Shown here: positions 2,242-21,848 of the stretch, piece by piece
How the letters are laid out: each line of letters starts with the position of its first letter
Numbering within the stretch: position 1 is the stretch's first letter
Assembly (NCBI RefSeq): GCF_025273655.1
Contig: NZ_CP045921.1
Span: 600,001-632,000, forward strand
DNA: 32,000 nt
Origin: Candidatus Saccharimonadota bacterium
GTDB lineage: Bacteria > Patescibacteriota > Saccharimonadia > Saccharimonadales > Saccharimonadaceae
Direction of reading: 5' to 3'
The notes under the pieces: model-generated
Databases searched by the model: none
Seen by the model: only the letters and a program-made list of their open reading frames with translations
Told to the model about the DNA's origin: nothing
Program-made: the position numbers and the translations under genes

Positions 2242-2242
2242 A

Positions 2243-3978: not shown

Positions 3979-3991
3979 CATTGCTTTTAGC

Positions 3992-4716: not shown

Positions 4717-4734
4717 CCTGTTTTTGTCCGATCG

Positions 4735-5229: not shown

Positions 5230-5380
5230 TGTTCATTACTCCTTTTCTAGAGCATAGATAGCTCTCGTTTGTTAATAGTTCACCAATGCGGAACGATGAA
5301 TGTCGTCCGTAGAGGATGAGGCTATACTAACGAGACAGCGCAAGGATGTAGAGGAAAACGTGAATAATGTTTACAGCCGA

Positions 5381-5410
5381 AAAGACAGCTCCGTATCTGG
5401 AGCTGTCTTT
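5381..5410 (-). terminator. Intrinsic terminator closing the methyltransferase-helicase-T5orf172 operon
   Basis: A perfect 12-bp stem AAAGACAGCTCC / GGAGCTGTCTTT has a 6-nt loop. It begins 18 nt after the stop at 5428 and has a U-tract on the minus strand. Confidence 0.7.
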
Positions 5411-5427
5411 GATTTTGGGCTATTTGT

Positions 5428-6585: not shown

Positions 6586-8564
6586 TATGCGTTATTCCTC
6601 TCTTTTTCTTGCTGCCACACGGTATAGCGTCGGGTCAGGTATGCTTGCGCATTAGCCAGTAGCTTCTCGTTCTTATCGGTTGCATTTAGCGCAGGATATT
6701 TGCCGTTATGAGCAATCACGAACGCCTTGATTTGTGGTACAAGTGCAAGGGCATCTTCGTCTGACATATCAATCCGAGAGCCAGCAATCGTATCTTGAAT
6801 AACACGAAACACATCTGCTCCCACTTTCTTGGATATCACCTCAAAGGCGTGCTGGAATGGATTGATCGAATCAATCAGGTCGATACTCAAATCATCAAGG
6901 TTTACAAAACTATTGGCCAGTGTAATGAACTTCTTGTCGCCCTCCTCGGTAACTTTCGTACCAGCAGATTTGAATGCCAGATTGCTCGCAAGATACTGAC
7001 GAGTTACCTCAACTTCTTCGTCAGAAAGCCCAGGAAGTTTCTCTCGGATAATCTTTGACTGGAGGTGCTTCATATATTCACCCGAGTGGCCGTTTGCGGC
7101 AGCACGCTGTATCTGCGTATCTTGCAGTACGGCTGCAGTCAAATCTTCTAGCTCAGTCGCAAGGATTTGTTTGACACGCTCGGTTGGTGGGTTTTTGAGG
7201 CCTTTGACGAACACCTCGCCAGCCTGTGCTTTTTGGTCTGGCGAGACACGAGGCTTGAATGTAAAGTTTGGTGCTAGCACTTGCTCCATCAGGAGTGAAG
7301 CGGTGATAGCTTTGAGCATATTATTCACCGACACTTGCACATCTTCGGTAGTGCCATTTGGCTGCACGATGAGGTTAGTAAACTGAGCGTGTGATTTATT
7401 GTAGCTATCACGGGTACAGCGGCCAATAATCTGCACGATTTCCGTCAAACTTGCACGGTAGCCAATCGTCAATGCTTGTTCACACCATGGCCAGTCAAAG
7501 CCCTCTTTTGCCATACCTAGTGCCACGATGATATCTACGCCATCAATATCTTCACGAGCCACCTCGCTGAGGTATTTGGTGATTCTGGCACGGTGCAGTG
7601 GGTCGTCATCGACGAGATTGGCGACCTTGCGTGTTATGCCATTTCCATCGAGGATATATTCGATACCTGTTTCGCTGTCTTGCGATTGCCATTCACCGAT
7701 ATGGCCGTAAATCTGCTCGACCTCCTCGTGTTTTCCAACCTGCGTTGATTCTTTTGAGTTGACGTTCGGAATGTGAATAATCGTCTTTTTGCTTGGGTCA
7801 AGCACCGCACTTAATGCACCATCATCAAGATAACTTCCTGTATAGAAATGGTAACCAATACCAAGTGTTTCGAGGTAGGTATAGCCATTCAGCTGCTCAT
7901 AGTAGGTATAGGTGACCTTATCAAACTCAGTTTCGTCCTCTGGCGTCAAAATCGGCACAGCATCGCCACGGAAGTACGAGCCGGTCATAGCGATTATCTG
8001 TACGTTAGTGCTATTCATCACTCGGTGTAGCAAATCACCAAGTCGGCTGTTATCGCTGACAGACACATGATGAAACTCGTCGATTGCCAGCACCGTGTCG
8101 TTAAACAGCTCGGTGTCCAGCTCTTCATTCTCAAACGCAAAGCGGAGCGTGGCATGCGTACATACCAATATCTTGCTATCATCCTGCATGAAGCGGACGA
8201 ACGATTTTACCTTGCTTTTATCATCGCCCGTACCGAGACAGAGGTTGTTGCGATCCTCGACTTCCCAGTTGGCGAAGAAGCCGTTATCTACGAGGTTTGT
8301 ATTACCGAATGATGAACCGATAGACTTTTCTGGCACGGCCACGATGACCTTTTTCTTGCCTTGGTGTATGAGCTTATCGAGGCCGATAAACATCAATGCT
8401 CGAGATTTACCAGACGCTGGCGGTGCTTTGATAAGCAAGTGATTGCTGGCACGTTTTTCAAACACCCGACACTGCATTTCTCGCATACCAAAGTTGTCGA
8501 TCTTGGTAGACTCACCGTTCTTCTCGTATTTTACGTCGATGATGTTGAGGGTTTCGCTGTTCAT
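6585..8564 (-). CDS. SF2 (ResIII/DEAD-DEAH-like) helicase
   Basis: Motif I is LLIKAPPASGKSRA, motif II AIDEFHHV, motif III AMTGSYF and motif VI QIIGRCTRD. I recognised no nuclease motif in the 220-aa C-terminal region. The ATG at 8564 lies 2 nt after the methyltransferase stop. Confidence 0.85.
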   Translation of the reverse strand: MNSETLNIIDVKYEKNGESTKIDNFGMREMQCRVFEKRASNHLLIKAPPASGKSRALMFIGLDKLIHQGKKKVIVAVPEKSIGSSFGNTNLVDNGFFANWEVEDRNNLCLGTGDDKSKVKSFVRFMQDDSKILVCTHATLRFAFENEELDTELFNDTVLAIDEFHHVSVSDNSRLGDLLHRVMNSTNVQIIAMTGSYFRGDAVPILTPEDETEFDKVTYTYYEQLNGYTYLETLGIGYHFYTGSYLDDGALSAVLDPSKKTIIHIPNVNSKESTQVGKHEEVEQIYGHIGEWQSQDSETGIEYILDGNGITRKVANLVDDDPLHRARITKYLSEVAREDIDGVDIIVALGMAKEGFDWPWCEQALTIGYRASLTEIVQIIGRCTRDSYNKSHAQFTNLIVQPNGTTEDVQVSVNNMLKAITASLLMEQVLAPNFTFKPRVSPDQKAQAGEVFVKGLKNPPTERVKQILATELEDLTAAVLQDTQIQRAAANGHSGEYMKHLQSKIIREKLPGLSDEEVEVTRQYLASNLAFKSAGTKVTEEGDKKFITLANSFVNLDDLSIDLIDSINPFQHAFEVISKKVGADVFRVIQDTIAGSRIDMSDEDALALVPQIKAFVIAHNGKYPALNATDKNEKLLANAQAYLTRRYTVWQQEKERNNA

Positions 8565-8566
8565 GG

Positions 8567-11377
8567 TTATTTCTTATCTTTCTCGGTGTTAGTCATCTGC
8601 TCGTAGAGGGCAAAGAGGTCGGCAAGGCGTTCTTCGTCAGAATTGTATGGCTTTTGGCGATACAATCGGTCGACGGCCACATCCAACTCTTCGTGGGCTT
8701 GTCGCAAGTCTTCGGGCATTTTGTCTGGGTCGTACATCTCGGCCAGCGTTTTCTCTGAGTGATTCTCACGAGCAAAGAGAACGCTGCGAGCTTTGGCGGT
8801 TAGTTCCTGTTTTTCGTGCTCGAGCAGTGGACGGAGTGGGAATGTATTGTAGACAACTGAAGCTGAATACCTAAGCCGTGTTTCTAGCTGGCCACCGACC
8901 GCTCGCACCCACGCCATGTGCATTTTTGAGCTAAGAATGCCGAGTAGCCATGGTTCGGCATCGTAGATAGCGAATGCAGCATTTGATACGACCGTTCCTT
9001 TTGGCAAGATACTCATAGGGATGTACTGTCTGCGCTCTGAAGATACGATAGGAGCTATCAAGCATTGCCTATCTTGATAGCGAATTTCGGCAAATCGCCA
9101 TGGCGTCGAGGCTAGCTTCTTGGTGCTAGCTCGCTTGCTATCCATACGCCACTCATATACTGCTTGGATCTTTTTGTTGAGTATCGGTATCTGCTTAGCT
9201 TCTTCGATATCCGCTTCGTTAATCCAGACGGCATACCGCTCAATGCCTCGTAGAAATTCCGCAGCACCGACAAACGGTTTGAGGAACTTCTCGGCATCTG
9301 GTGATGCCTTGAGGATATCCTTGTATTCGTTGAGTGATATTGTAAAGTGACCGTCATCGAGTGCGAAACTGCCATAGTCGAGAGATGGTATCGATGATAG
9401 TGGCTTAGAGCGTGACATCACAATCGTACTGCTGCCAGACGACAAGTATGCGTTGATATTGTCTACTTTTTGCCGAATACCGCCATTGTAGATATATTTA
9501 TCTTTTGAACTCTCCGAACCTATGCCGATAACGACAACCGTAACGCCTGCATTATTTCTGGCACTGTTCTGCCATTTGAATGATTGGTGAGCAAAAATAA
9601 TCTCGTGCTTTGTGTCGAATATGTACGACCATAGCAGCTCCACTTGCACGCCTTGAACGATGGAGTTGGTAGATATAATAGCAGCCCTGCATTTGTTACT
9701 ATCACCGATGTAGTCGGCCGCTTTTTTGAACCACACAGCAATATAATCAAGGTTTCCGTAGCCCTTAATATCACCAAGAACGAGCTGCATATCTTCTTTT
9801 TGAGCAGCGTCGAGCCACCTCGCACCTCCATATGGTGGATTACCGATAAGATAGATCTCGTCGTATTCTTCTTTTACGAGTTCTTGTTGCTCACTCTCGT
9901 TCTCAAACCCTATGAGTTCACTTTGCTGGCTGGCGGCACTTGGTATGCCAACGGCATGCGGCACATTCGAGCAGACATCGTTCCAGTCCAGCCGAGCGGC
10001 ATTGCCGTGGATGATATTCGCATTGTCTTTGAGCGGAATGAGCTTTATCTCTCGGCCGAACTGCTTCTCGAATTCGATGTTCATCTGATGCTTCGCAAGG
10101 TAGAGCGACAAGATGGCGATTTCGTGTGGGAAGTCGTCAATTTCGATGCCGTAGAAATTATCGAGTTTGATTTGCGAAGATAGCTTATTCTTCATACCTT
10201 CTTCGAGTAGGCTACCAAGGAGCAATCGCTCAATGATGGCATGTTCAATCTTACGCATTTCTTTGTAGGCAATAATCAGGAAATTACCACTACCACAGGC
10301 AGGGTCAAAGACCTTAATCTTGCTGATTCGCTCCCATAGACGGATGAGCTTGCTCGGGTTGTCATAGTGTTTGTCGAACTCCTCACGCAATTCATCGAGA
10401 AAGAGCGGCTCGATCGTTTTCATGATGTTTGGCACGCTAGTATAGTGCTGGCCGTGCGTGTGCCGCTGGTTTTCATCCACGATGCTCTGGAACATCGAGC
10501 CGAAGATATCGGGGTTGATTTCTGACCAGTTCAAGTTGCCGCAGTCGAGAATGAGTTTGCGAGCTTGGGCATTGAACTTTGGTATGCCGATGCTGTGCTT
10601 TTTGGTGTCAAAAATTGTACCGTTGACGTACGGAAACTTACTAAACGGACTGGTGAAGCTTGACTTATCTTCGGTATCGAGAGCGTCGAATAGCGTGCGG
10701 AGGAATGTATCGAGATCGCTGCCATCGGTCTGCGTGTAGTCCTTGATAGAGCCAGTAAAAATAGCCTTTTCATCATTACTAAATACCCGAGTATCCTCGG
10801 CAAAGAAGCAGAATAGTAAACGGCTAAAGAATACATTGAGGTCGTGACGGAAGTTAGCTTGTGGGTCAGCCAAGCGCTCGGCATTGAACTTCTCGATTTC
10901 AGAGTAGAGTTCTTGCATTTTGTCGGCCGCACGACGATCGGCAACGGCTTCAGTCTTTTCGTCGGTAATTTCATCACCCGTCCAGCCATAGAAAAAGTCA
11001 ACATCACGATCAATATCTCGCAGATTGATATCGAGGCGAGTATCTTTCTTGGTGTCGATAGCAACGAGCTTGTCGTAATCGGTAACAATGAGGTAGCGAG
11101 GGTTATAGCGAACAACCAGCGGATCTTGCTCTAGTTCTTCAAGAGTAGAGCGAAGCTTGCTTGAATCGGTGATGTGCCTGAAGTACACGACGCCACGCTG
11201 CAATACGTCGTTTTCTTTGTCGCTGGCAAGATTGAGTGAGCCTTGACGTAGCTTGGTGATGGCCGAACTCGCACGGCCATAGGCAGCCAGCAGCTCATAG
11301 AGGATGTCGATATTGTACGATTCACGATTGGCCAGTTCGGTAACGTTTCTCTGGACATCGGCAAAGGCAAGACGCAT
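8567..11377 (-). CDS. MmeI-family (Type IIL/IIG-like, gamma-class) N6-adenine DNA methyltransferase with built-in target-recognition region
   Basis: Motifs seen: LLFCFFAEDT, FPYVNGTIF, HGQHYTSVPNIMKTIEPLFLDEL, motif I FDPACGSGNFLI and motif IV GNPPYGG. The C-terminal segment YSASVVYNTFP...LAEMYDPDKMPEDLRQAHEELD matches my memory of MmeI. I chose the ATG at 11377 (MRLAFADVQ...), giving 936 aa. The 32 extra codons in the track ORF cover leader hairpins. Confidence 0.88.
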   Translation of the reverse strand: MRLAFADVQRNVTELANRESYNIDILYELLAAYGRASSAITKLRQGSLNLASDKENDVLQRGVVYFRHITDSSKLRSTLEELEQDPLVVRYNPRYLIVTDYDKLVAIDTKKDTRLDINLRDIDRDVDFFYGWTGDEITDEKTEAVADRRAADKMQELYSEIEKFNAERLADPQANFRHDLNVFFSRLLFCFFAEDTRVFSNDEKAIFTGSIKDYTQTDGSDLDTFLRTLFDALDTEDKSSFTSPFSKFPYVNGTIFDTKKHSIGIPKFNAQARKLILDCGNLNWSEINPDIFGSMFQSIVDENQRHTHGQHYTSVPNIMKTIEPLFLDELREEFDKHYDNPSKLIRLWERISKIKVFDPACGSGNFLIIAYKEMRKIEHAIIERLLLGSLLEEGMKNKLSSQIKLDNFYGIEIDDFPHEIAILSLYLAKHQMNIEFEKQFGREIKLIPLKDNANIIHGNAARLDWNDVCSNVPHAVGIPSAASQQSELIGFENESEQQELVKEEYDEIYLIGNPPYGGARWLDAAQKEDMQLVLGDIKGYGNLDYIAVWFKKAADYIGDSNKCRAAIISTNSIVQGVQVELLWSYIFDTKHEIIFAHQSFKWQNSARNNAGVTVVVIGIGSESSKDKYIYNGGIRQKVDNINAYLSSGSSTIVMSRSKPLSSIPSLDYGSFALDDGHFTISLNEYKDILKASPDAEKFLKPFVGAAEFLRGIERYAVWINEADIEEAKQIPILNKKIQAVYEWRMDSKRASTKKLASTPWRFAEIRYQDRQCLIAPIVSSERRQYIPMSILPKGTVVSNAAFAIYDAEPWLLGILSSKMHMAWVRAVGGQLETRLRYSASVVYNTFPLRPLLEHEKQELTAKARSVLFARENHSEKTLAEMYDPDKMPEDLRQAHEELDVAVDRLYRQKPYNSDEERLADLFALYEQMTNTEKDKK

Positions 11378-11466
11378 CAGCAGACACCCTCTGCAAACGC
11401 ATGATAATAGCAATAAGAAACTGACCTGTGAAGCGGCATAGTTTTGCGACCTTTCGTTTTCAGCCG

Positions 11467-11498
11467 CAAACAAAAATGCGACTATTTACTTAGTCGCA
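11467..11498 (-). terminator. Intrinsic terminator/attenuator in the leader of the methyltransferase operon
   Basis: On the minus strand, TGCGACTA (11498-11491), loop AGTAAA and TAGTCGCA (11484-11477) are followed by TTTTTGTTTG (11476-11467). This lies about 100 nt upstream of the ATG at 11377. Confidence 0.55.
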
Positions 11499-11548
11499 AA
11501 ACTACAATTTATTTTCCGAAGAAAGATAAAAAGCGTAAATAGCCGCAT
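11486..11548 (-). CDS. Candidate 20-codon leader mini-ORF (MRLFTLFIFLRKINCSFATK)
   Basis: A strong SD AAGGAAGG (11560-11553) lies 4 nt before the ATG at 11548. The TAA stop (11488-11486) sits in the loop of the terminator hairpin. The ORF is too short for the ORF track. Confidence 0.3.
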   Translation of the reverse strand: MRLFTLFIFLRKINCSFATK

Positions 11549-11593
11549 TTAGCCTTCCTTCAGAAAAATAAATCAAATAAATTGTAGTTTTGC
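11496..11593. repeat. Perfect 19-bp inverted repeat with a 60-bp spacer
   Basis: GCAAAACTACAATTTATTT (11496-11514) has its exact reverse complement at 11575-11593. The core TAGTTTTGC / GCAAAACTA also occurs at 11439-11447. Confidence 0.9.
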
Positions 11594-11599
11594 CTCTTT

Positions 11600-11608
11600 A
11601 TTATACCA
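11600..11608 (-). promoter_or_regulatory. Extended -10 promoter element (TGgTATAAT) for the methyltransferase operon leader
   Basis: The minus strand reads gaTGgTATAATaaagag, followed directly by the IR arm GCAAAAC at 11593. The -35 is weak. Confidence 0.45.
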
Positions 11609-11736
11609 TCATCTCCTCTGTATTTGTACGGTGCTGGCGATACTTATCTAAGTTTTTACATATCAACCCCTAGACTCTTGAGGTAAAGTATAATAAAAGA
11701 GCGAGGACGCCCCCTTGGGAATGGATAAGTGATAAA

Positions 11737-13971
11737 ATGTCGATAATCAAGAAAATAACTAAGCTAAAAAATCTAGGTATCTATACCAGTTTTAATTGGG
11801 ACACAAGTCTGCAAGAGCTAAAGCAATACAACGTCATTTACGGATGGAATGGCACAGGAAAGAGTACCTTCTCTAAGCTGCTCGGTGCATTGAATGTGGG
11901 CAACCATCCAGACTTTCCGTCTCTCGAGTATCAAGTACATGATAGTGATGGAAGTGTACACACCCACGGAACAGCTTTCGGCACCCCAATACGAGTCTTT
12001 AATACCGATTTTATTGCAGACAATATAGATTTCGACACTCTAAGCTCGAAGTCTATCACGGTAGTTCTAGGCAAAGAGAATAAGGCGGCACTCAAGGCTA
12101 TCGAAGAGGACGAAGCCGAGCTAGCTAGAACAAAGGAAGCTATCCGCACGAAAACTATCGAGAAAGAGGCCAAAGAGAAAGAGCGAGGCCTAGAATTTAC
12201 CACTGTCGCCAAAGTTATTGGTGCTGTGAGTCGAGGTGGCGTCGTGCGCACCTACAATAAAACTCACGCAGAGCAAGCCTTTGCAAGATTGTCTGACAAA
12301 GAATTGCTCGATGATACTGAGTTAGAAAAGCTAGTGTTGTCGGTTGCACAGCCATCTCTTCCTGAGCAGAAACAGATGTCGTTAGGCGAGACAAGCACTG
12401 ACCTGTCAGAAATTATTGACGAAGCCCATACCCTACTAGCTAAGACGGTATCGGCTAGTGTTATTGAGCGACTCAAAGAAAATGCGGATATTTCTGAATG
12501 GGTAGAAGCAGGCATCAAAGTGCATGCCGACCACGAAAGTAATACATGCGAATTCTGCGGTAACCCATTAGACACAGCAAGGCTAGCAGAGCTAACGGCA
12601 CATTTCAACGAAGCTGATGCAAAGTTAAAACTAGAGGTAGATGATCTTGCGAATAGATTAGTCACCGTATATAACATCATTAAAGATCTCAGCCCCGTCG
12701 ACAAAATGAATCTCTATCAAGAGTTTCATAGCGACTACGCAGAAAAAGTGGAAAGCCTGACAAGCGAACGTGATGCTTTGCTTGAGTCCATAAAGAAATT
12801 TGGTGAGCTCGTGCGATCCAAGAAGCTTCATACGACCGAAGAGCTTAGTATTGCGGAAACGCCCGACCTTACAAAAATCACTAGCTCCTTGGATGAAGTA
12901 AATAAAATTATTGCCAATCACAATAAAAAGACAAGCGACTTCCTCAACCAACAAAAGAATGATAGTGCTAAAATCGAAAACCACCACCTTAGCGGCATCT
13001 ATGACAAGGTCAATGGCCTGAAAGATCAGATTGAAGTACTGGATACCGAGATAGCTGTCCTGAAGGATGGAGATGAGAAAGTTACCGGACAAACTGAGCT
13101 ACTGTCTAGAATTGCAACAAATAAGAGCAAGGTCTCGTCAGAGCATAAGGCCTGCGAACTGCTCAATGTGTCGCTCAAGAAGTTTCTAGGTCACGACGAG
13201 ATAACATTTGCACCAAATACTGAAAGTGGCGATGACGCGGGCTATTTACTATTAAGGCGTGGCAACCCCGCGAAGAGCCTTAGTGAGGGCGAACGAACCG
13301 CAATCGCATTTGTATTTTTCGTAACACAGCTGCGAGACGATAGCTTCGATCCAAAGACCGGGATTATCGTTGTTGATGACCCAGTCTCTAGTCTCGACTC
13401 CAATTCACAGTATCAAGCGTTTTCATTTCTGAAAAAGGCCACCGAAGATGCGAGTCAGCTATTTATACTTACCCATAATTTCGACTTCTTGAAACTAGTA
13501 ACTAACTGGATTAAGCACTCTCGTAAAACGTTTGGTTTATTTATGGTGAAGAATAGCTTCTCTGAAGCGGACAGCACACGCACTGCGTACCTAGATAAAT
13601 TAGATAAAGCACTCGAAGAATTTGAAAGTGAATATCACTACTTATTCAATGTTGCCTACAAATACAAAGATGACGGCACTATAGCGAATGCCTATAAAAT
13701 GCCCAACATAGCTCGTAAGCTACTCGACAGCTTCTTGATGTTCCGAGTCCCAAAGAATACTAATACATTCAACCGCTTACAGGAAATAAGCTATGACGAA
13801 GAGAAAAAAGCATCTATCTATAAGTTCGCCAACGACCAGTCGCATATTACAGGCTCTGGTTTTGACCCCTCTTTGGTACCCGAGGCCAAAAATTGCATAA
13901 CCGACTTGCTTGACATGATGAAGGCAGTTGACCCCGACCACTTTAGATACCTAGAGGAAACCATATCTTAA
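11737..13971 (+). CDS. AAA_13 / RloC-PrrC-like ABC-type ATPase with coiled-coil CxxC insert and anticodon-nuclease-like C-terminal domain
   Basis: Motifs seen: Walker A GWNGTGKST, signature LSEGERTAIAF and Walker B/D-loop GIIVVDDPVSSLDS. About 400 aa of coiled coil separates Walker A from the signature and contains CEFCGNPL. The C-terminus reads NIARKLLDSFLMFRVP ... ANDQSHITG, resembling the PrrC/RloC R..E..H region. Confidence 0.75.
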   Translation: MSIIKKITKLKNLGIYTSFNWDTSLQELKQYNVIYGWNGTGKSTFSKLLGALNVGNHPDFPSLEYQVHDSDGSVHTHGTAFGTPIRVFNTDFIADNIDFDTLSSKSITVVLGKENKAALKAIEEDEAELARTKEAIRTKTIEKEAKEKERGLEFTTVAKVIGAVSRGGVVRTYNKTHAEQAFARLSDKELLDDTELEKLVLSVAQPSLPEQKQMSLGETSTDLSEIIDEAHTLLAKTVSASVIERLKENADISEWVEAGIKVHADHESNTCEFCGNPLDTARLAELTAHFNEADAKLKLEVDDLANRLVTVYNIIKDLSPVDKMNLYQEFHSDYAEKVESLTSERDALLESIKKFGELVRSKKLHTTEELSIAETPDLTKITSSLDEVNKIIANHNKKTSDFLNQQKNDSAKIENHHLSGIYDKVNGLKDQIEVLDTEIAVLKDGDEKVTGQTELLSRIATNKSKVSSEHKACELLNVSLKKFLGHDEITFAPNTESGDDAGYLLLRRGNPAKSLSEGERTAIAFVFFVTQLRDDSFDPKTGIIVVDDPVSSLDSNSQYQAFSFLKKATEDASQLFILTHNFDFLKLVTNWIKHSRKTFGLFMVKNSFSEADSTRTAYLDKLDKALEEFESEYHYLFNVAYKYKDDGTIANAYKMPNIARKLLDSFLMFRVPKNTNTFNRLQEISYDEEKKASIYKFANDQSHITGSGFDPSLVPEAKNCITDLLDMMKAVDPDHFRYLEETIS

Positions 13972-14024
13972 GACTACGATCTTAAACTGGCTTTGTATCT
14001 TTTATTACAAAAAGGCTTTGCGAA

Positions 14025-14507
14025 TTACTGGCAATCTTTTGCATATCCCGCATCAAGTGCTTCTTCTGGCGTAGCGAACCGCAGTTTCTCAGGATAGTCG
14101 GCTGGATATGGCGTGTAACTCTGTTCGTTGCTAAGGTAGCCAACGAGTACCGTACAATTACTACCATCTGATGTGTGGTAGACAGTTTTTCCGTCATCAA
14201 ACAACACTACTCCGTCGATCTTGAGGCTGTGCGCTCTTGTCCAATCAAGGATTGCTGCATCTTTCGGCACTCCACAACGTTCAGCGGCTGACGCTTCGAC
14301 ATTGCCTTGCTCTACAAACTCCGATGTAGCAACATCAGAAATGTCGGCAAGCTGACATGATGCCTTTGGTGTGGTGGTTGAGGCAGTATTCTTGGTTGCT
14401 GTGCTGCTTGGTCGATTCACGATATAGATACTACCTGCGATACCCGTCAGTAGGATAATCGCGACAACTATACCAATAACTCGCGGATTCTTGATGTTTA
14501 CATTCAT
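14025..14507 (-). CDS. Signal-anchored / secreted protein of unknown function (4 Cys)
   Basis: It has an N-terminal TM segment VIGIVVAIILLTGIAGSIYIV, a Thr/Ser-rich linker, then a roughly 110-aa domain. It starts 3 nt after the stop of the upstream gene. Confidence 0.6.
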   Translation of the reverse strand: MNVNIKNPRVIGIVVAIILLTGIAGSIYIVNRPSSTATKNTASTTTPKASCQLADISDVATSEFVEQGNVEASAAERCGVPKDAAILDWTRAHSLKIDGVVLFDDGKTVYHTSDGSNCTVLVGYLSNEQSYTPYPADYPEKLRFATPEEALDAGYAKDCQ

Positions 14508-14510
14508 TCC

Positions 14511-15416
14511 TTATTCTGTCTCTTCCTGTGCTTTTACAAACTGCACTATCGCATCACCGTTCATATTTCCGTATGCTTTTACTCCCTCACCAATCGTTGC
14601 TAGATAAATATTTTTTGTATAGTCGCTATACGCCACGACATAACCCGTAGGCTTTTTGAGTAGCTCGACGATCCTGCTCGCAGCATCTTCTTTCACGACA
14701 GTGGAGTTGTCAGCGCTCCAGATGATACCGCCATATTCAAGCGTCGCACCTACGTCCATTCTGTTATCTATTCCATTACCACACTCGGTCTTCAGGGTCG
14801 CTTTCAGACCTGCCATTGTGGTATACATCTGACTTGGCACGCCATCGTCACCATCGTTGAAATCCGCGCTTGAAAGTGGGGTATCATATAGCCTCATATT
14901 CTTTAGTTCCCAGCCAGGACTGTAAAGAGTGTCTATCCCACCAAGAAGCTGTTTCAGCTCTGTGCTAACCGGCTCCGCATAAACGGGCAGTACGGACATA
15001 TTCACGAGACACGGTGCTTTTTTGCCCGATGTCGTATTTGTGATCTTCACGCTGTAAACAGGCATAGTTGCTTTACTAATTCCTACATACCCCGGCTTGC
15101 CTTCGCTAGAATCAATTGTAGCGTCAACATCGCCCACTTCGTACTCTATGTCATAGCTATAGCCACTGACATCTGTAAATGAGAGCTTATCTATCTTTGG
15201 CTTCTCATCGAAAGTATCGTCACGAGGTGAGTTTGCTTCGCCATCATGGTACGTTGTCTCGCTTTGGTCTGGTGTCGCTTGAGACTGCGAGGACGATGGG
15301 CTACTCCACGAAATTTGCGTCAGAATAATACCGACCACAGTCGCAATAATTAATCCGGTAGCAACTTGCTTTTTATGTTCTTCTATCCAGATACTGAGTA
15401 GTTGTAAATTCATCAT
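14511..15416 (-). CDS. Signal-anchored protein of unknown function
   Basis: SD AAAGGAA lies upstream of ATGATG. It has an N-terminal TM segment VATGLIIATVVGIILTQI, a Ser/Gln-rich linker, then a roughly 230-aa domain with no motif I recognise. Confidence 0.6.
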   Translation of the reverse strand: MMNLQLLSIWIEEHKKQVATGLIIATVVGIILTQISWSSPSSSQSQATPDQSETTYHDGEANSPRDDTFDEKPKIDKLSFTDVSGYSYDIEYEVGDVDATIDSSEGKPGYVGISKATMPVYSVKITNTTSGKKAPCLVNMSVLPVYAEPVSTELKQLLGGIDTLYSPGWELKNMRLYDTPLSSADFNDGDDGVPSQMYTTMAGLKATLKTECGNGIDNRMDVGATLEYGGIIWSADNSTVVKEDAASRIVELLKKPTGYVVAYSDYTKNIYLATIGEGVKAYGNMNGDAIVQFVKAQEETE

Positions 15417-15434
15417 TGTATTCCTTTTTATTAC

Positions 15435-16142
15435 CTATGGATACTGCACCAAGAGCAGGAGTAATAAGCCAATATTTATAAGGAAGATGATGAACGTGAG
15501 TGCAAAACCGCCAATATTAAGCGTCCATTTTCCACCTTGATAACGATACCATGCGTAGATTGCTGTACCAATAACCCATAGCCATGCAAGAAGCATAATT
15601 TGCTGGCTTTCTTTTAACTCCCACGCCAGACGACTACTGGCTGGCTTGAAGATGAATAGCAACATCAGTGCTGTGGAGATACCGTACACCAGCCATGAGG
15701 CGTCTGCTTTCTTGTGTGTGCGTGGTGCAGCGGACTTTTCTTTGTGTGCAGTTTCGACTTTGGTCACGGTGTGTTTTGCTGCTGTTTTCTGCGACGCTGG
15801 ATTATCTACGAGCTTGGCTGCTTTGTGGCACGCCGAGGCGATAAAGATGAGGAGTATACCGAACGCAATCGAGGCAAACATACCGCCCATTTCGCTTGCA
15901 TAGTAGCCACTTCGCCCGTGAACGTAGGTTGAGACAATGAGCCAACCACCACCAAGTACGGCAATACCCATGCCAATCTTGAGACCAGTTGATGGGATAT
16001 TGTATGTCCTCGCAAGTCCCGCAATAAAGATGGCTAGTTTATGCGATAGGCTATCGAATTTGCCTTTAATAGAGTTGCCTAATTTATCGATTGAGCCATC
16101 AATCTTTTCTGCTGTATTTTTCTTCTCGTGTTGTTCGGTCAT
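15435..16142 (-). CDS. Multi-pass membrane protein of unknown function
   Basis: I chose the ATG at 16142 (MTEQHEKKNT...) because GCGGAGGAAGGC lies immediately upstream. The track ORF starts 20 codons earlier. The protein has at least four hydrophobic segments and a Lys/Thr/Ala-rich central loop. Confidence 0.6.
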   Translation of the reverse strand: MTEQHEKKNTAEKIDGSIDKLGNSIKGKFDSLSHKLAIFIAGLARTYNIPSTGLKIGMGIAVLGGGWLIVSTYVHGRSGYYASEMGGMFASIAFGILLIFIASACHKAAKLVDNPASQKTAAKHTVTKVETAHKEKSAAPRTHKKADASWLVYGISTALMLLFIFKPASSRLAWELKESQQIMLLAWLWVIGTAIYAWYRYQGGKWTLNIGGFALTFIIFLINIGLLLLLLVQYP

Positions 16143-16342
16143 GCCTTCCTCCGCAAGCATTAAATAGTTGGTAGAGCGGAGGTCGGATATAAAAAACGAC
16201 AACCATTCTAGGTTGTCTAGGCCAAGTAAAACGAGTCAAGCTCATTTAACGTTTCGAATGGTTGCCGTTATCTTAAACTTGACAACCAAAGCTATGATTC
16301 TTTGGCGAATCGTTTTACTTTTACCTAGACGTTCTCAGTATA
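16143..16342 (-). promoter_or_regulatory. Structured 5' leader (riboswitch-like or attenuator-like) of the membrane-protein operon, including a -10 TATACT
   Basis: See the finding for 16143-16342. The leader contains nested helices P0-P3, an intrinsic terminator, a duplicated UGGUUGUC 8-mer able to form an antiterminator, and an anti-SD/SD hairpin. Confidence 0.45.
16189..16217 (-). terminator. Intrinsic terminator inside the leader, 47 nt upstream of the ATG at 16142
   Basis: On the minus strand, GACAACC (16217-16211), loop UAGAAU and GGUUGUC (16204-16198) are followed by GUUUUUUAU. Confidence 0.65.
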
Positions 16343-16577: not shown

Positions 16578-17183
16578 ATGGCAATATCTCAAGAAAAATA
16601 CGATGCGATAAAATCTAGCCCATACAGCCCTCATGCAAGTTGGACAGTTTGGCAAGCAATTGAAGAATACGAAAAACCAAAAGCCCGCATGGGTGACTTG
16701 AGTGTTTTCGAGGATAGTCCCGAGTTACTACAGACACTCCACACCGACATCGTATTTGTTGCGCTGAACTCTGCCGATAGGGACATTCAGCCAAAGCCGT
16801 TCAGCGCGTTCCACGATACAAGCCCTTACGCTATGGACTACAAAATGCGCTACGCGTTTAAAGATACGGTACTTTGGGGTAGCTATCTCACGGATTTCTT
16901 TCATGGACTACGCGAGACGGACTCTAGCAAGGTGAAAGTATTTCTCGCGGCACACCCAGACTTTCTCCACCACTCCATTGCTCGATTTAATGAAGAGATG
17001 TAGTTCATCGCAGAAGAAGGCAAAAAGCCAACGCTCATTGCACTAGGGTCGCAAGTAAAAGAACTCTTGGAGCTGTATGTTGCAAACGAGTATCGTATTC
17101 TGGAGCTACCGCATTACAGTTATTCTGTAATGACCAAAGAGCGCTACCGCGAACGCGCCCTTGAGCTAATTAAGCAGCTGTAA
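16578..17183 (+). pseudogene. Uracil-DNA-glycosylase-superfamily-like gene interrupted by an in-frame TAG
   Basis: The 141-aa ORF ends at TAG 17001-17003. The same frame continues for 59 more codons (FIAEEGKKPTLIALGSQVKELL...LELPHYSYS...IKQL) to TAA 17181-17183. The joined product has the UDG-fold layout: VFVALNSAD near the N-terminus and LIALG...PHYS near the C-terminus. TATAAT at 16563-16568 lies only 9 nt before the ATG, so the mRNA may be near-leaderless. Confidence 0.5.
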
Positions 17184-17184: not shown

Positions 17185-17352
17185 TTATTTGTCATTATTG
17201 ATAGTCGGCAGCACGACGGTTATTAGTTCGTCAGTCTCTTGTTGCGACATAGCTTGCTTCTTTGGTGGAATAGCCTTCTTGCTGCGCTTCTTTGCCGCAC
17301 CGATGAGTGCTAATACTCCGATAGCAGCGCCAAAAGCAATGAGCTCAATCAT
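17185..17352 (-). CDS. Unannotated 55-aa single-pass membrane peptide
   Basis: The sequence is MIELIAFGAAIGVLALIGAAKKRSKKAIPPKKQAMSQQETDELITVVLPTINNDK. Its ATG overlaps the TGA of the upstream gene (ATGA at 17352-17349). It is below the 60-aa cutoff of the ORF track. Confidence 0.45.
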   Translation of the reverse strand: MIELIAFGAAIGVLALIGAAKKRSKKAIPPKKQAMSQQETDELITVVLPTINNDK

Positions 17353-18842
17353 GCTCGCACCTCAATCAGTTCCTTGAGCTTCTCGTAAATGGCCACCATT
17401 GCATACGTATCCAACCCACAGTATTCACGTAGGTCGGCCAGTATCTGGTCTCTGTCTGGTCGTGTGCCATCGACAATCGCTTCGCGCCACGAACGGCTGG
17501 CAGTCGAGCCCTCTTGGATGCCAAGTGTCTTATAGGACAGCTCGGGGCATAGTAACGGCAACACCTTCTTGATTGAATACTTACCCTTGAGCCGCTTATC
17601 GAGATAGAAGCGTTTACTAAAGACATCCGCAAGATCAACGGTACGCTCGTTGAGATCTTCAAAGAACGGAGCATGCTCTGGATAGAGCTTGGCGTATTCT
17701 TTATGACGTGAGCACTCAAAGGTTTTGTTCCACACGATAATCGAGCCTGTGCTACCAATATCTTGCTTCAGGTGGGCGATAACACTCTCGGCAGGGTTTG
17801 TGCTTGTATCATGGAGGTATTCAATATGTGTGAGCGTACCGTCTTCTTGCATGATATGCAGCGAATACTGAAACACGACCTGCTGGTACGGGAACGTATG
17901 GTCAAATGGCGGAAAGATATGGTTAATCGACTCGTAGTCGAGGAAGTAGGCTGGGGATTCGATATCACCAAGGAATGCTCGAATAGCCTCTTTGTCGACG
18001 ATGACCTCATCTAGCTTCGTCACACGTACTTGGTCTTGCTGATGGGCTTGTAGCTTGGTTGAATCTGGAATATCGACGATGAGCTTCACGTCGTTATCTT
18101 CGAGGCTTCCGATAAGCTTGTCTGTACCTACACCCTTATTCGAGGCAAGGTCGTAAATGCTATATTCGGGAATATCTGGATGGAGCTTGTAGAAGATATC
18201 TCGGTATTCGCCCGCGGCACCAAGCCCGACGTAACGGAGCGAGTCACTTGGCATTGTATCGCTCTCGGCTATTTTGGCGGCTTCTCGCATCTTCTCAGGG
18301 GCATTCAGGACTTCTTTGTTTACTTTGTCGGTAACATCAGTGAACATCACGATATCTTCGAGCTTGATTTCACCGTTACGAAGATATTCTTTATTGGCGT
18401 GCAGTACTTGGTCAGTTCGCACAGGAAAGCCACTCCACTCAATAACCGTCTTCTGAAACGCAAGGTCGCAGATATGCTCTTTGTCTGGCGAGGTGGTGGC
18501 TTTGATTTCTGTCAGGGTGTAGGCATCGCCATCACTTGTAATGGCGTCAGCGATACACAAGAAGCCATCATAGAGAAAGGCTGCTTGCAAAATAGTGTCC
18601 ACGCCTTGCTCGAGTAGCGCCTTGGTCTCATCCGCCCATTCCTGCATGTCTGCATAGTCGTTACGATCGAGGCGTATTGCTTCGGGGAATATCTGCTCAG
18701 CTAGCTTCTCAAATTCACGACCCTCGTCGATGATAGCCTGCGAGTTGTCATCAGGCGTTGGCAAGAAATCTGGGTCGTGCTTGCGAAGCCAGAGCCACGC
18801 TGGATGTTTGAGATAGGTTATGTAGTCGGTTTTAGAAATCAT
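17349..18842 (-). CDS. DUF2779-like protein: N-terminal PD-(D/E)XK nuclease plus C-terminal DUF2779 region
   Basis: The N-terminus reads MISKTDYITYLKHPAWLWLRK. A candidate D...ExK is CIADAI...LTEIKAT. The C-terminal part reads FLDYESINHIFPPFDHTFPYQQVVFQYSLHI ... GSIIVWNKTFE ... YSIKKVLP, as I recall for DUF2779. SD GAGGAG lies 7 nt upstream and the gap to the preceding gene is 20 nt. Confidence 0.62.
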   Translation of the reverse strand: MISKTDYITYLKHPAWLWLRKHDPDFLPTPDDNSQAIIDEGREFEKLAEQIFPEAIRLDRNDYADMQEWADETKALLEQGVDTILQAAFLYDGFLCIADAITSDGDAYTLTEIKATTSPDKEHICDLAFQKTVIEWSGFPVRTDQVLHANKEYLRNGEIKLEDIVMFTDVTDKVNKEVLNAPEKMREAAKIAESDTMPSDSLRYVGLGAAGEYRDIFYKLHPDIPEYSIYDLASNKGVGTDKLIGSLEDNDVKLIVDIPDSTKLQAHQQDQVRVTKLDEVIVDKEAIRAFLGDIESPAYFLDYESINHIFPPFDHTFPYQQVVFQYSLHIMQEDGTLTHIEYLHDTSTNPAESVIAHLKQDIGSTGSIIVWNKTFECSRHKEYAKLYPEHAPFFEDLNERTVDLADVFSKRFYLDKRLKGKYSIKKVLPLLCPELSYKTLGIQEGSTASRSWREAIVDGTRPDRDQILADLREYCGLDTYAMVAIYEKLKELIEVRA

Positions 18843-18862
18843 ATTTTACTCCTCAGAATGCC

Positions 18863-21157
18863 CTATCTTTTACTTAATGAAAGAAATACATCATCAATGC
18901 GTGAATTCTCATCCGATTTCATTTCTCTTTGAGTCTCAAAGTCGTCATCGTCTTTAGAATAGAAGCTTGAGCCATCATAATCTTCTGGTGGTTCAGCCCA
19001 TGCATTGAACTCATTATCGACGAAACTACCGTCAAGACCATAGCATTCCAATGTATCGTTCATCTCATCTTTAATGTCGATATCCTTCTCGCCATCTGTT
19101 AACCTCTGTCGCACTTCTTCGCTAAGGATGTCTTCGTAATACTCGTCCTGAGCTATTCTTTCAGCTATACGATCCAAGACAAACTTTTTGATGCCGTAGC
19201 TCCATCCTATCTCAGCCACTGTTTTCATGTCCTCGTAGGTACCGACAGCACCTACAACCGAGTGTACAAAATTATCTGCCACTTCATCTGGTAGGTCGTC
19301 GGAATCACAGTACGTATCAAAGGCATTAAGTGCAGCCGAAACGTCTTGAGTGTGAGGGATAGAAGACTGCAATATCGCAAGTACAGCCCGAGAGAACTCT
19401 TGATTGACCTCCTCTATAGCATCCGACACATCAGAGAGTCTCGATATGCTATCAAAAATATCAAAGCTCTCAGGAGTACCTGAATTACCTAGCCATGGTA
19501 ACTGCTGCCAGCTACTGAGGACTTTTTCCTTCATCGCTTCAACACCCGATTCACTTAGTACGATAGGAGTATAGCCAGATAACGACGCCCGTAATTCGTA
19601 ACTGCTACTATCTGCACTGATTGCGAATGGATGCGTAAGCTGGTTGAGGTACACGGCACTTCTAATGAGCTTTTCAATCGAGTGGTTGTGTCCGCGATAA
19701 TAGTGAGTGATAAAGTCGTAAATAGTAGGGTTTAATACATCTACGACGATCTGATCATCTTTATCTTTTGATGTTTTCAGGAATGTACTTTCAAGCACAT
19801 CAATAGATCGACGCAGTTGCGTTTCGTCGATCGTATCATCAAAAGAAACCACTGCCTTATGTAGATATTCAAAGCGTACGTTTCTTCCGATCGACATCAT
19901 TACCAGCATAATATTGCGAGCATTTTCGTCGATCTTATTCATATAGATATCCTCGTATAACATCCAAGGATTATTAAATAGTTCGATTACCTTATCGCAA
20001 AATGATTCTGGCAGGCAATCCGACCAAAGCTTTTGCTTATTAATCGCTTCAATGAGGCGTGGATTATAGTTCCTATGTCTCACGATACTTCTATATACTT
20101 TTTTGTCGACAAAATATTCGAGGTGTTCCTCTGGTATATCCGATACCGCGAGATGATTGTAGAGGATCTTGGCTTTTGTCACCAAGTCATATTCAGACAA
20201 GTCGACAATATATTTCGCGTCAAGAAAGCCCTGATCTTTAAACACTTCGGTGCTTTGTTGAGCTTGATGAAGTATATACTCACGCGTCGTCATGATAAGT
20301 GCCTTATTTTTTCTTAGACGACCTGCGTTTTCAATCAATGTCCTAAATATGCCATCCTCTCTGCGAGATAGCTTATCGTCTAGGTAATTACTACCCAGAA
20401 AGTCATCAAACAGGAAGATCTGCTTCTTGTCAGGGTCGCTACTCATCATCTCTAGGGCGTCATTGATATCTTGCGGCAAGGCGACCAACTCATTAAAATC
20501 ACCTTCACCAAGCAAGTAGTAGCTCATAACGTCGGCAAGTGTCGTTTTTCCTACTCCAGGCTCGCCAGCAATGACAATAAACCCGTGCTCTTTTAGTGTT
20601 AACATAGCCTCATTAAAACTTGGCGTTGGAGAATAGGTTTCTAGCGTGTCGATAATCTTTTCTTTTATAAGACCACTATAATTAGACACCCTACTTGAAA
20701 GTATTGTCTGTAGTACATTACTGCTTGCGATCCAGAGCTTATAATGCCTCTTTTCAACATTGGGATGCTTGTGCAATAAACTATTAAGCTGCTTAGGTGC
20801 GAGTATATCGCTCGATTGTTTGATATATGGCGAGAATAGCGCAACTATATCGTTTATCTTATCCTCTGTAAGGTCTAGCGATACTGAGAGGATGTACCTC
20901 TCAGGAGCAGGGCTCATCTCATCCAGCTTTAGACGCTCTTTGGCTAAATTCGCCATAAGACCTGACGCGCTCTTGTAGCGCTTGCACTGCACAATAATCG
21001 TGCGGTCGTTGTCGCATGCCGAGTACCTTAGGTCGATACCACCATCCGCTCCATCCGCGAACGCCTGAAACGATACGCCCATTTCTTCTGAAAGCAGGTC
21101 TTTCGTGAATTCCTCGAACTCACCCCATGTTAAAACATTAAAGTTATACTCATTCAT
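18863..21157 (-). CDS. Mrr-like restriction-endonuclease domain fused to a STAND-type P-loop NTPase with an alpha-helical C-terminal region
   Basis: The N-terminus FEEFTKDLL...GADGGIDLRY...IIVQCKRYKS matches the Mrr catalytic pattern. Also present: Walker A IAGEPGVGKTTLA, Walker B IFLFDDFLG, then MTTREYIL, ILYNHL and NYNPRLIE. The tail is acidic. The gene is very AT-rich. Confidence 0.72.
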   Translation of the reverse strand: MNEYNFNVLTWGEFEEFTKDLLSEEMGVSFQAFADGADGGIDLRYSACDNDRTIIVQCKRYKSASGLMANLAKERLKLDEMSPAPERYILSVSLDLTEDKINDIVALFSPYIKQSSDILAPKQLNSLLHKHPNVEKRHYKLWIASSNVLQTILSSRVSNYSGLIKEKIIDTLETYSPTPSFNEAMLTLKEHGFIVIAGEPGVGKTTLADVMSYYLLGEGDFNELVALPQDINDALEMMSSDPDKKQIFLFDDFLGSNYLDDKLSRREDGIFRTLIENAGRLRKNKALIMTTREYILHQAQQSTEVFKDQGFLDAKYIVDLSEYDLVTKAKILYNHLAVSDIPEEHLEYFVDKKVYRSIVRHRNYNPRLIEAINKQKLWSDCLPESFCDKVIELFNNPWMLYEDIYMNKIDENARNIMLVMMSIGRNVRFEYLHKAVVSFDDTIDETQLRRSIDVLESTFLKTSKDKDDQIVVDVLNPTIYDFITHYYRGHNHSIEKLIRSAVYLNQLTHPFAISADSSSYELRASLSGYTPIVLSESGVEAMKEKVLSSWQQLPWLGNSGTPESFDIFDSISRLSDVSDAIEEVNQEFSRAVLAILQSSIPHTQDVSAALNAFDTYCDSDDLPDEVADNFVHSVVGAVGTYEDMKTVAEIGWSYGIKKFVLDRIAERIAQDEYYEDILSEEVRQRLTDGEKDIDIKDEMNDTLECYGLDGSFVDNEFNAWAEPPEDYDGSSFYSKDDDDFETQREMKSDENSRIDDVFLSLSKR

Positions 21158-21270
21158 TTTATTTATATCCGAGTTATGTAGCCCCTAACTCCTGTTGACT
21201 CATTGTTGCAATTATAGCAAAAGTTCATATTCATTGCTCAGCTAGATCAAGCCGTTGCAGATTAATAAGA

Positions 21271-21299: not shown

Positions 21300-21315
21300 A
21301 CTCGTAATTTCACTG

Positions 21316-21400
21316 TGGTACGGATGAAAGGACTTGAACCTTCACGCCCGAAGGCAATAGCTCCTAAGGCTATCGTGTCTACCAATTCCACCACATCCGC
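21316..21400 (-). tRNA. tRNA-Leu (anticodon UAG), 85 nt with encoded CCA
   Basis: The sequence is GCGGATGTGGTGGAATTGGTAGACACGATAGCCTTAGGAGCTATTGCCTTCGGGCGTGAAGGTTCAAGTCCTTTCATCCGTACCA. The anticodon stem is ATAGC/GCTAT around loop CTTAGGA. There is a long variable arm with a UUCG loop and a T-loop TTCAAGT. The acceptor stem's first pair is G1-U72. Confidence 0.9.
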
Positions 21401-21752: not shown

Positions 21753-21808
21753 AGCCTTAGGAGCTAGTGCCTCCGGGCGTGAAGGTTCAAGTCCTTTCAT
21801 CCGCACCA
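21753..21808 (+). repeat. Inverted partial copy (3' 56 nt, anticodon stem to CCA) of tRNA-Leu; att-site-like remnant
   Basis: AGCCTTAGGAGCTAGTGCCTCCGGGCGTGAAGGTTCAAGTCCTTTCATCCGCACCA differs at 3 of 56 positions from the reverse complement of 21316-21371. There is no matching 5' half upstream, so it is not a functional tRNA. Confidence 0.85.
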
Positions 21809-21809
21809 A

Positions 21810-21848
21810 CGTAAAAACATCGGAAATCCCGATGTTTTTACGTTTATG
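21810..21848 (+). terminator. Intrinsic terminator directly after the tRNA fragment
   Basis: A perfect 14-bp stem CGTAAAAACATCGG (21810-21823) / CCGATGTTTTTACG (21829-21842) has loop AAATC and is followed by TTTATG. Confidence 0.7.

Follow-up and report, generated by a model that had tools for sequence, protein, structure and literature searches.

Locus layout and composition

The window analysed here is a stretch of 32,000 nucleotides from a Candidatus Saccharimonadota bacterium (contig NZ_CP045921.1, positions 600,001 to 632,000), in which three minus-strand open reading frames (ORFs) follow one another in tight series. An earlier reading of the sequence, referred to below as the original prediction, proposed that they form an undescribed three-part defence system. 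Gene 1 (18863–21157, minus strand) encodes a 764-residue protein with an Mrr-type nuclease, an nSTAND3 NTPase and a helical C-terminal region, as indicated by its ORF and by Pfam, PADLOC, AlphaFold2 and Foldseek. Gene 2 (17349–18842, minus strand) encodes a 497-residue DUF2779 protein, identified from its ORF, Pfam, AlphaFold2 and Foldseek, and gene 3 (17185–17352, minus strand) encodes a small protein of 55 residues with an N-terminal hydrophobic segment, recognized from its ORF, a codon comparison and its homologues. Genes 1 and 2 are separated by a 20-nt spacer (18843–18862, minus strand) in which a GAGGAG ribosome-binding site can be read, and genes 2 and 3 are joined by an ATGA stop/start overlap; on all these points the original prediction agrees with the sequence. 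Loci used for comparison are denoted by L and a number, and identical copies of the spacer occur only in L086 and L087.

A tRNA-Leu(tag) gene (21316–21400, minus strand; ARAGORN, with an Rfam tRNA score of 57.5 bits) lies 158 nt upstream of gene 1 on the same strand, and marks the right-hand border of a low-GC island. To the right of the tRNA, GC climbs from about 0.42–0.44 to 0.52–0.54. Pfam and PADLOC identify the low-GC region, at about 2.2–21.3 kb, as a defence island, and the three genes do therefore stand beside a tRNA-Leu island boundary, as had been suggested. The GC content is 42.3% in gene 1 (43.9% at third codon positions, GC3), 49.0% in gene 2 (GC3 55.2%) and 45.8% in gene 3, compared to 54.1% in recG, and the difference between genes 1 and 2 is a hint of different histories. 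The description of the block as the most AT-rich part of the window is correct only in part: gene 1 is strongly AT-rich, and its lowest 1-kb value is 40.9%, but genes 2 and 3 are less so, and positions 3001–4000 equal it (40.8%).

A candidate extended −10 promoter element for gene 1, TGcTATAAT (21211–21219, minus strand), was read by eye downstream of the terminator-like hairpin (21299–21278) that follows the tRNA. The gene 1 homology of loci L004 and L173 reaches upstream to 21226 and so takes in this putative element, which was missed by a consensus scan because it has no −35 match. The sigma-70 scan as a whole gave 10 sites in the window compared to 9.4 in shuffled sequence, which is no excess, and it therefore cannot decide transcription units. 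Beyond gene 3, a hairpin scan gave a weak terminator-like hairpin (17141–17156, minus strand; 5 pairs, 3 of them GC) about 30 nt past the stop codon, and a second terminator-like site (17046–17028, minus strand). Terminator-like sites in the window are barely in excess, at 6 compared to 3.2 expected in shuffled sequence.

Domain structure and family of gene 1

Gene 1 is predicted to consist of three parts. The N-terminal effector module (residues 1–178; 20624–21157, minus strand) contains an Mrr-type PD-(D/E)XK core, D38/D42…Q57-x-K59, assigned from the homologue alignment and from a Pfam match to Mrr_cat (PF04471) at residues 9–65 (E = 1.2e-8; 35.5 bits against a threshold of 21), which covers positions 4–61 of the 115 in the profile and thus its first half only. 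It is followed by an nSTAND3 P-loop NTPase (PF20720; residues 175–336; 20150–20635, minus strand), for which the Pfam match is very strong (E = 1.6e-44; 151.7 bits, the cut-off being 27.2) and agrees with the homologue alignment. The remainder, from about residue 337 to 764 (18863–20149, minus strand), is all-helical and is presumed to be the sensor, on the basis of DSSP analysis of the AlphaFold2 model, the alignment and BLASTP.

In an alignment of 60 homologues, residues G36, D38, G40, D42, Q57 and K59 of the Mrr core are invariant, as are Walker A (G198-x2-G201-V-G203-K204-T), Walker B (D251-D252) and the T291-R292-E293 motif of the NTPase. The last 250 or so residues are poorly conserved: the consensus consists mostly of ‘x’ past about residue 510, and the BLASTP query coverage of distant homologues ends at about 67–72%. 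The AlphaFold2 model has a pLDDT of 81.7 and contains almost exclusively helices from residue 325 on.

The best Foldseek matches of gene 1 in the PDB are Avs4, SAMD9, EfAvs5, NOD2 and plant NLRs. Sequence searches of the PDB returned only generic P-loop matches for gene 1 and nothing for gene 2 (the top match being vimentin, E = 0.31); these searches are uninformative, and so fold comparison was needed. The motifs GADGGIDL, VQCKRYKS, GEPGVGKTT and FLFDDFLG, on which the original prediction had based an Mrr nuclease fused to nSTAND3 in an Avs/STAND layout, are all present in the translation, and both the Pfam domains and the matches to Avs4 and EfAvs5 bear the layout out.

Avs (AVAST) proteins have the same tripartite layout as gene 1, namely effector, STAND NTPase and C-terminal helical sensor, and Avs4 has an Mrr-like nuclease at its N-terminus. 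The phage-portal-bound structure of Avs4 (8dgf_B) matches gene 1 with E = 1.6e-7, and EfAvs5, a SIR2-STAND protein (9jap_A), with E = 5.4e-6. However, Avs4 has 1534 residues in 8dgf_B and gene 1, at 764, is about half as long; the TM-scores of gene 1 to Avs4 and Avs5 are low, at 0.13–0.27, so that the likeness is limited to domain types; and no AVAST/Avs model in PADLOC matches gene 1 at E <= 0.1. Avs5 (SIR2 + nSTAND3) has the same Pfam nSTAND3 domain as gene 1 (bioRxiv 10.1101/2025.07.08.663546).

The PADLOC model that does match gene 1 is PDC-S73, with E = 9e-132 and 439 bits, aligning residues 1–758 to positions 1–749 of 752. By this profile match, gene 1 is a new member of PDC-S73, a catalogued single-gene candidate family, and the assignment to a named single-gene entry goes against the idea of an undescribed three-part system. 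The PDC systems (Payne et al., bioRxiv 10.1101/2024.01.29.577857) are 145 phage-defence candidates, in which ‘S’ denotes one that consists of a single gene. PDC-S73 is named in none of the papers of the literature library that was searched. There is no architectural difference between gene 1 and PDC-S73, both having Mrr, nSTAND3 and a helical C-terminus, and gene 1 also occurs as a single gene, in that 77 of 79 homologous loci have no conserved DUF2779 neighbour. Thousands of gene 1 homologues are annotated as ‘restriction endonuclease’ or ‘nSTAND3 domain-containing NTPase’. The difference lies in the host: the copy described here is in a Saccharibacteria-type genome of the candidate phyla radiation (CPR), whereas the named relatives, which are below about 40% identity, are mostly from Bacteroidota and Leptospira.

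The effector module of about 175 residues (residues 3–178; 20624–21149) also matches Argonaute-associated PADLOC models, with E = 1.5e-36 for Aga_TIR-PNTD1-PNTD2 and E = 1.2e-20 for Aga_REase-TIR-PNTD1-PNTD2. From these matches, the module appears to have been swapped between STAND proteins and short-pAgo-associated proteins.

Gene 2 as a predicted dual nuclease

Gene 2 matches Pfam DUF2779 (PF11074) with E = 1.7e-40 and 138.6 bits, compared to a threshold of 23.3. In 62 homologues, two sets of catalytic residues are invariant: D99, E112 and K114, of PD-(D/E)XK type, and D302, E304, D403, Y474 and D478, of DEDDy type. We conclude that gene 2 is a predicted Cas4/RecB-like PD-(D/E)XK nuclease with a C-terminal DEDDy exonuclease of RNase H fold, expected to act in the 3′–5′ direction. 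The AlphaFold2 model has a pLDDT of 95.1, and its N-terminal half finds Cas4 (8d3l_I, 2e-4), MGME1 and RecE in Foldseek. The RecB-like D…EIK motif noticed originally corresponds to D99…E112-I-K114, and both it and the DUF2779 region are upheld by Pfam and Foldseek. No PADLOC model matches gene 2 or gene 3.

DUF2779 has been classified in clade F.17 of the RNase H-like proteins, with a PD-(D/E)XK domain as its fusion partner (PMC3985635). One member, MMSYN1_0389 of JCVI-syn3.0, is an uncharacterised, quasi-essential chromosomal gene (PMC13621843), and a DUF2779 gene was among the coding sequences disrupted in a transposon-mutant screen of M. bovis (PMC7373297). Gene 2 has the same two-nuclease fusion as MMSYN1_0389 and UU173 of Ureaplasma, with all the catalytic residues. 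It is shorter than the members of the Mollicutes UU173 subfamily, and scores 105.3 bits against the NCBIfam UU173 model (NF045869), under the curated cut-off of 225 and over the C-terminal part of the model only. The settings also differ, the syn3.0 gene being chromosomal and quasi-essential, whereas the gene 2 clade lies within mobile defence islands with a membrane peptide after it.

The fold of the N-terminal half is closest to Cas4 structures (8d3l_I, 4r5q and 7mi4), which makes Cas4 and solo-Cas4 the other natural comparison. Gene 2 differs from Cas4 in its additional exonuclease domain, in having no Pfam Cas_Cas4 match, and in having two cysteines (C96 and C125) in its N-terminal half, where Cas4 has a four-cysteine Fe-S cluster. 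No cas genes were seen among the annotated ORFs, and no CRISPR repeat array was seen nearby.

Relatives of gene 2 are overwhelmingly from Patescibacteria/Saccharibacteria, a distribution that, together with the near-identical loci L086 and L087, points to a Saccharimonadales genome as the source of the window. The identity of gene 2 to proteobacterial copies (39–44%) is equal to that to other Saccharibacteria (40–46%), which suggests horizontal mobility. DUF2779 homologues with 31–44% identity were also found at 15 predicted viral or proviral loci in IMG/VR (L176–L190), two of which (L183 and L188) are on a single contig, IMGVR_UViG_3300032737_000190.

Gene 3, a small predicted membrane protein

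The hydropathy profile of gene 3 has one hydrophobic segment, which peaks at residues 1–19 and is in keeping with the tiny membrane peptide originally described. The protein also has a basic cluster, KKRSKK, and a conserved C-terminal motif, (D/E)ELITV(V/I)LPTINxDK. It has no Pfam match above threshold. Its database relatives comprise 14 protein clusters at 71–98% identity, together with more distant relatives of 57–73 residues at 45–67% identity, and the comparison with L086 gives 14 synonymous and 6 non-synonymous codon differences. By these sequence comparisons, gene 3 is a real and conserved small protein, predicted to be in the membrane.

In L174, from which gene 1 is absent, a 59-residue homologue that is 50% identical to gene 3 lies directly downstream of gene 2, and it keeps the hydrophobic N-terminus, the basic cluster and the C-terminal motif. 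Degenerate copies of the C-terminal motif are present downstream of gene 2 in L175 and L087. Since gene 3 follows gene 2 where there is no gene 1, it goes with gene 2, and not with gene 1. The idea that gene 3 is a remnant of the genes of 218–227 codons that follow gene 2 in L002, L167 and L168 was ruled out, as the three proteins concerned are related neither to one another nor to the window.

Co-occurrence of genes 1 and 2

We built hidden Markov models for the gene 1 and gene 2 families, and scanned two sets of loci with both: 79 metagenome loci collected from gene 1 relatives (31–65% identity), and 80 GTDB loci collected from gene 2 relatives (39–95% identity). A downstream flank of at least 2 kb was present in 42 of the gene-1-seeded and 67 of the gene-2-seeded loci. 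DUF2779 was matched in 2 of the 79 gene-1-seeded loci, one being a genuine Saccharibacteria relative and the other a weak match 5 kb away. Gene 1 was matched in 2 of the 80 gene-2-seeded loci, both of them close relatives (85% or more). On viral contigs in IMG/VR, none of the 15 gene-2-type loci and neither of the 2 gene-1-type loci has both genes; a phage-borne association of the two was rejected on this basis.

It is therefore clear that the co-occurrence and gene order that a three-gene system would be expected to conserve across lineages are not found in these samples. Genes 1 and 2 are paired in essentially one Saccharibacteria clade only; the expectation that the two genes would be neighbours elsewhere fails outside this narrow clade, and inside it the arrangement is not conserved, as described below.

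Gene 2 has no universal partner of another kind either. Among 711 neighbours of the 80 gene-2-seeded loci, 471 of 544 clusters are singletons and no family occurs at more than 11 loci. In the wider CPR, the commonest neighbours at these 80 loci are DsbA-like genes (11), rpoD (8), dnaG (8), hisS (8), rpoC (7) and bipA (7), and restriction-modification (RM) genes are a minority.

Arrangements within the close clade

The close clade comprises 11 distinct gene 2 contexts, with mutual identities of about 79–95%. Gene 1 is absent from three of these (L166, L168 and L174), and L167 could not be scored because its upstream flank is cut. In the window, L086 and L087, gene 1 precedes gene 2 with the same 20-nt spacer. 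L002 has the order gene 1, a gene for a 194-residue protein, gene 2, and a gene for a 219-residue protein. The order is reversed in L004 and L173, where gene 2 precedes gene 1 with a gap of 166 nt, and in L175 gene 2 is followed by genes for proteins of 99 and 84 residues, two genes on the opposite strand, and then gene 1. Conversely, gene 1 relatives with 57–65% identity are found without DUF2779 in L001, L170 and L172, beside type I RM genes or recombinases.

L174 has the order TerB_N, gene 2, the 59-residue gene 3 homologue and an SNF2 helicase. It has gene 2, gene 3 and SNF2 in common with L086, but what directly precedes gene 2 is not the same in the two loci. The homology between loci begins exactly at the ATG of gene 2. 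Elsewhere, the gaps between gene 2 and unrelated upstream genes (GmrSD, TerB_N, ASCH or unknown) are only 1–9 nt, or the genes overlap. As gene 2 is equally tight to these unrelated genes, tight spacing is no specific evidence for a partnership with gene 1.

The wider surroundings of gene 2 in this clade are island-like. In L002, L004, L168 and L173 a common backbone lies upstream of gene 2, consisting of a serine recombinase, a small ORF, Replic_Relax, in some cases an Rce1-like gene, DUF3768 and DUF7249. The serine recombinase adjoins a tRNA gene (tRNA-Trp in L002 and tRNA-Gln in L168); on the far side of the cargo, L166 and L173 carry TrbC/TrbL. From its gene content, the set of recombinase, Replic_Relax, cargo and TrbC/TrbL looks like a family of Saccharibacteria integrative elements of conjugative type. 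The ordered pair of genes 1 and 2 in L086 lies at the edge of another defence island, with CdiA-C, SNF2, GmrSD and a KAP NTPase, and that in L087 at the edge of yet another, with a tyrosine integrase, tRNA-Leu, type I RM and HamA.

Histories of genes 1 and 2

The two genes have diverged from their counterparts to different extents. The protein identities to the window are 99.5% for gene 1 and 85% for gene 2 in L087, 89% and 84% in L004, and 61% and 82% in L002. Compared to L086, synonymous differences occur at 83 of 765 codons in gene 1 and at 145 of 498 codons in gene 2 (Fisher p = 3.9e-16). The genes also differ in GC3, at 0.44 for gene 1 compared to 0.55 for gene 2. The paired copies are not monophyletic in either the gene 1 tree or the gene 2 tree, and the gene 1 of the window is nearer in its tree to the unpaired copies in L001 and L170 than to the paired copy in L002. 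Genes 1 and 2 thus have different histories.

In L087 (7685–9980), the gene 1 that is 99.5% identical to the window copy is frameshifted near residue 165, and gene 2 beside it is intact. The split gene 1 is either a pseudogene or an assembly error in a metagenome-assembled genome.

Interpretation of the locus

Our analysis does not support the three genes as a conserved new defence system. We consider it probable that the locus holds two independent units that are adjacent by chance, one of them gene 1 alone and the other the pair of genes 2 and 3.

The first unit would be a self-contained sensor-effector of STAND type. By analogy to Avs proteins, which oligomerise upon direct binding of a conserved phage protein such as the terminase or portal, the variable helical C-terminus of gene 1 would bind a ligand derived from the phage, whereupon nSTAND3 would drive an ATP-dependent oligomerisation. 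The Mrr-type PD-(D/E)XK domains would thereby be brought together and would cut DNA, so that either the phage DNA is destroyed or the infection is aborted. We infer this mechanism from the Avs and STAND literature, and the features of gene 1 that are consistent with it are its domains, its conserved catalytic residues and its fold. In the second unit, gene 2 would trim DNA ends of both polarities, its substrates being suggested by the two predicted nuclease activities, and gene 3 would be anchored in the membrane. The gene 2–gene 3 pair would be a long-standing resident of the region that carries defence cargo in conjugative-type islands of one Saccharibacteria lineage. Gene 1 would have been inserted as a cassette into the slot directly upstream of gene 2, and would work without any need of gene 2.

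A number of observations weigh against this explanation. In 7 of the 10 informative contexts of the close clade, no more than 3 kb separates genes 1 and 2, a proximity that exceeds a random draw of defence cargo unless the ancestry of the islands is shared; the sample is small, and its contexts are not phylogenetically independent. Two divergent lineages of gene 1, with 84–97% and 61% identity, are found beside this one lineage of gene 2. A DNA comparison of the window with L086 shows that 17185–21161, which is to say genes 1–3, is common to both at 92% identity, with no other homology within 10 kb on either side; as the block shared is exactly that of the three genes, the trio has moved or persisted together at least once. 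Finally, the scans gave neither a convincing terminator nor a convincing promoter in the interval from gene 1 to gene 2, and the two genes are therefore probably co-transcribed in the window.

These are also the observations that would be expected if genes 1 and 2, and perhaps gene 3 as well, were a genuine multi-gene defence module specific to the clade. In such a module, the STAND protein would sense infection, its Mrr domain would nick or cut the DNA, and the DUF2779 protein, as a dual exonuclease, would degrade the DNA from both ends, supplying a clean-up like that of RecBCD. These reduced genomes are not known to have RecBCD/AddAB end processing. The tight spacing and probable co-transcription, the exact three-gene block in the otherwise unrelated context of L086, and the 7 of 10 islands that have gene 1 within 3 kb, which among them show four arrangements and include both of the divergent lineages of gene 1, all speak for a module. 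We nevertheless regard it as unlikely: order, strand context and spacing vary; either gene has highly identical copies in loci that lack the other; the two genes disagree in divergence and in composition; L087 has a frameshifted gene 1 beside an intact gene 2; the association in the wider family is essentially zero; and PDC-S73 is defined as a single-gene candidate.

A looser form of cooperation may be envisaged, in which the DUF2779 exonuclease and its peptide are an island-resident helper, in one Saccharibacteria lineage, of whichever DNA-cutting defence gene is adjacent. This would explain both the constancy of gene 2 amid changing cargo and the presence of PDC-S73 within 3 kb in 7 of 10 contexts. 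We hold such a helper role to be rather doubtful. It is similarly doubtful that the partner would most often be PDC-S73, and otherwise GmrSD or RM, with gene 2 degrading the cleaved invader DNA as a surrogate for RecBCD/AddAB.

Gene 2 could also be a core housekeeping nuclease for repair or turnover, which flanks a defence hot spot and is itself outside any island. The quasi-essential member in JCVI-syn3.0 (PMC13621843) and the gene disrupted in the M. bovis screen (PMC7373297) point in this direction, as do the housekeeping genes that are the commonest neighbours in the wider CPR and the fact that gene 2 is the single constant gene across islands of differing cargo. However, gene 2 in the close clade has variable defence cargo on both sides, and is found several kb in from the ends of elements that have a tRNA gene with a serine recombinase at one border and TrbC/TrbL at the other. 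The chromosomal surroundings differ between the window, L086 and L087, homologues are present at 15 loci predicted to be viral or proviral, and the proteobacterial copies (39–44%) are as close as those of other Saccharibacteria (40–46%). A housekeeping role for gene 2 is therefore quite improbable.

Last, it is hardly credible that gene 3 is a spurious ORF within the 3′ UTR of gene 2, as its mere 55 residues and want of a Pfam match above threshold or a PADLOC match might suggest, in view of the excess of synonymous over non-synonymous codon differences to L086 (14 against 6), the correspondingly placed homologue of L174, which has kept the features of the protein, and the database relatives at 71–98% and 45–67% identity.

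If gene 1 and the gene 2–gene 3 pair are indeed independent units, then the locus is mostly ordinary, being one more copy of PDC-S73 in a defence island. Even so, the record of PDC-S73 would extend to the candidate phyla radiation, whose defence repertoires have been little mapped. The comparison also documents conjugative-type islands of Saccharibacteria, with serine recombinase, Replic_Relax, DUF3768, DUF7249, variable defence cargo and type IV secretion system (T4SS) genes, in which the DUF2779 nuclease and a conserved membrane peptide of 55–59 residues would be a constant element. Given that DUF2779 is quasi-essential in JCVI-syn3.0 and has no known function, its defence-island context in another lineage with reduced genomes is a useful clue.

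Neighbouring genes in the island

The rest of the defence-cargo island occupies 2243–16202. At the left-hand end of the window, an ORF of more than 748 codons (1–2247, minus strand), which continues past the start of the window, resembles T4SS coupling proteins (Pfam T4SS-DNA_transf, TrwB_AAD_bind and TraG-D_C), and it overlaps the stop codon of a gene for an MT-A70/type II methyltransferase (2243–2929; Pfam, PADLOC) by 5 nt. The presence of this ORF suggests that the defence cargo sits between a conjugation module and the tRNA-Leu.

A T5orf172/MUG113 protein (5428–6585; Pfam), a DEAD/ResIII helicase (6585–8564; Pfam) and an MmeI-like type IIG RM enzyme (8567–11473; PADLOC E = 9.5e-287) form a tight series on the minus strand (5428–11473). 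The helicase has weak matches to PbeA in PADLOC. In L167 (2560–8901) the whole array of MmeI, helicase and T5orf172 is kept, with an extra gene for a 142-residue protein. Possibly, the array is a variant type IIG system made up of several genes. An AAA_13 protein (11737–13971, plus strand; Pfam) matches PDC-S06 over its full length in PADLOC (E = 8e-236), and is thus a second PDC candidate within the same island as PDC-S73. Beside gene 2 homologues, the MmeI/DEAD and AAA_13 modules are found again in L167 and L168, the AAA_13 homologue of L168 being at 8481–10637.

Two ORFs of 166 and 164 codons (3992–4492 and 4735–5229, both minus strand) appear by eye to be paralogues, their first 50 residues being similar, and a 19-nt direct repeat (3945–3963 and 4684–4702) lies about 30–50 nt past the stop codon of each. 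Neither has a significant match in Pfam or PADLOC. Between the AAA_13 gene and gene 3 there are four further ORFs of unknown type in the ORF list, of 160, 301, 255 and 141 codons (14025–16202, minus strand, and 16578–17003, plus strand). None of these has a Pfam match, and a PADLOC scan of three of them gave no match either; inspection by eye shows several hydrophobic stretches in the 255-residue product.

A direct repeat of the 3′ end of the tRNA-Leu, which would mark the att site at the far border of the island, was sought in the window and not found, and there are no integrase or recombinase genes among the annotated ORFs. The borders of the island are therefore based on GC and gene content only. 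There is, however, an inverted partial copy of the tRNA-Leu gene (21753–21816, plus strand), comprising 64 nt that are 91% identical to the 3′ two-thirds of the gene (21308–21371). It lies 381 nt from the real gene with AT-rich DNA between them, and the homology between the window and L087 crosses it, extending to 21815. The inverted copy could have been left behind by an integration or an inversion.

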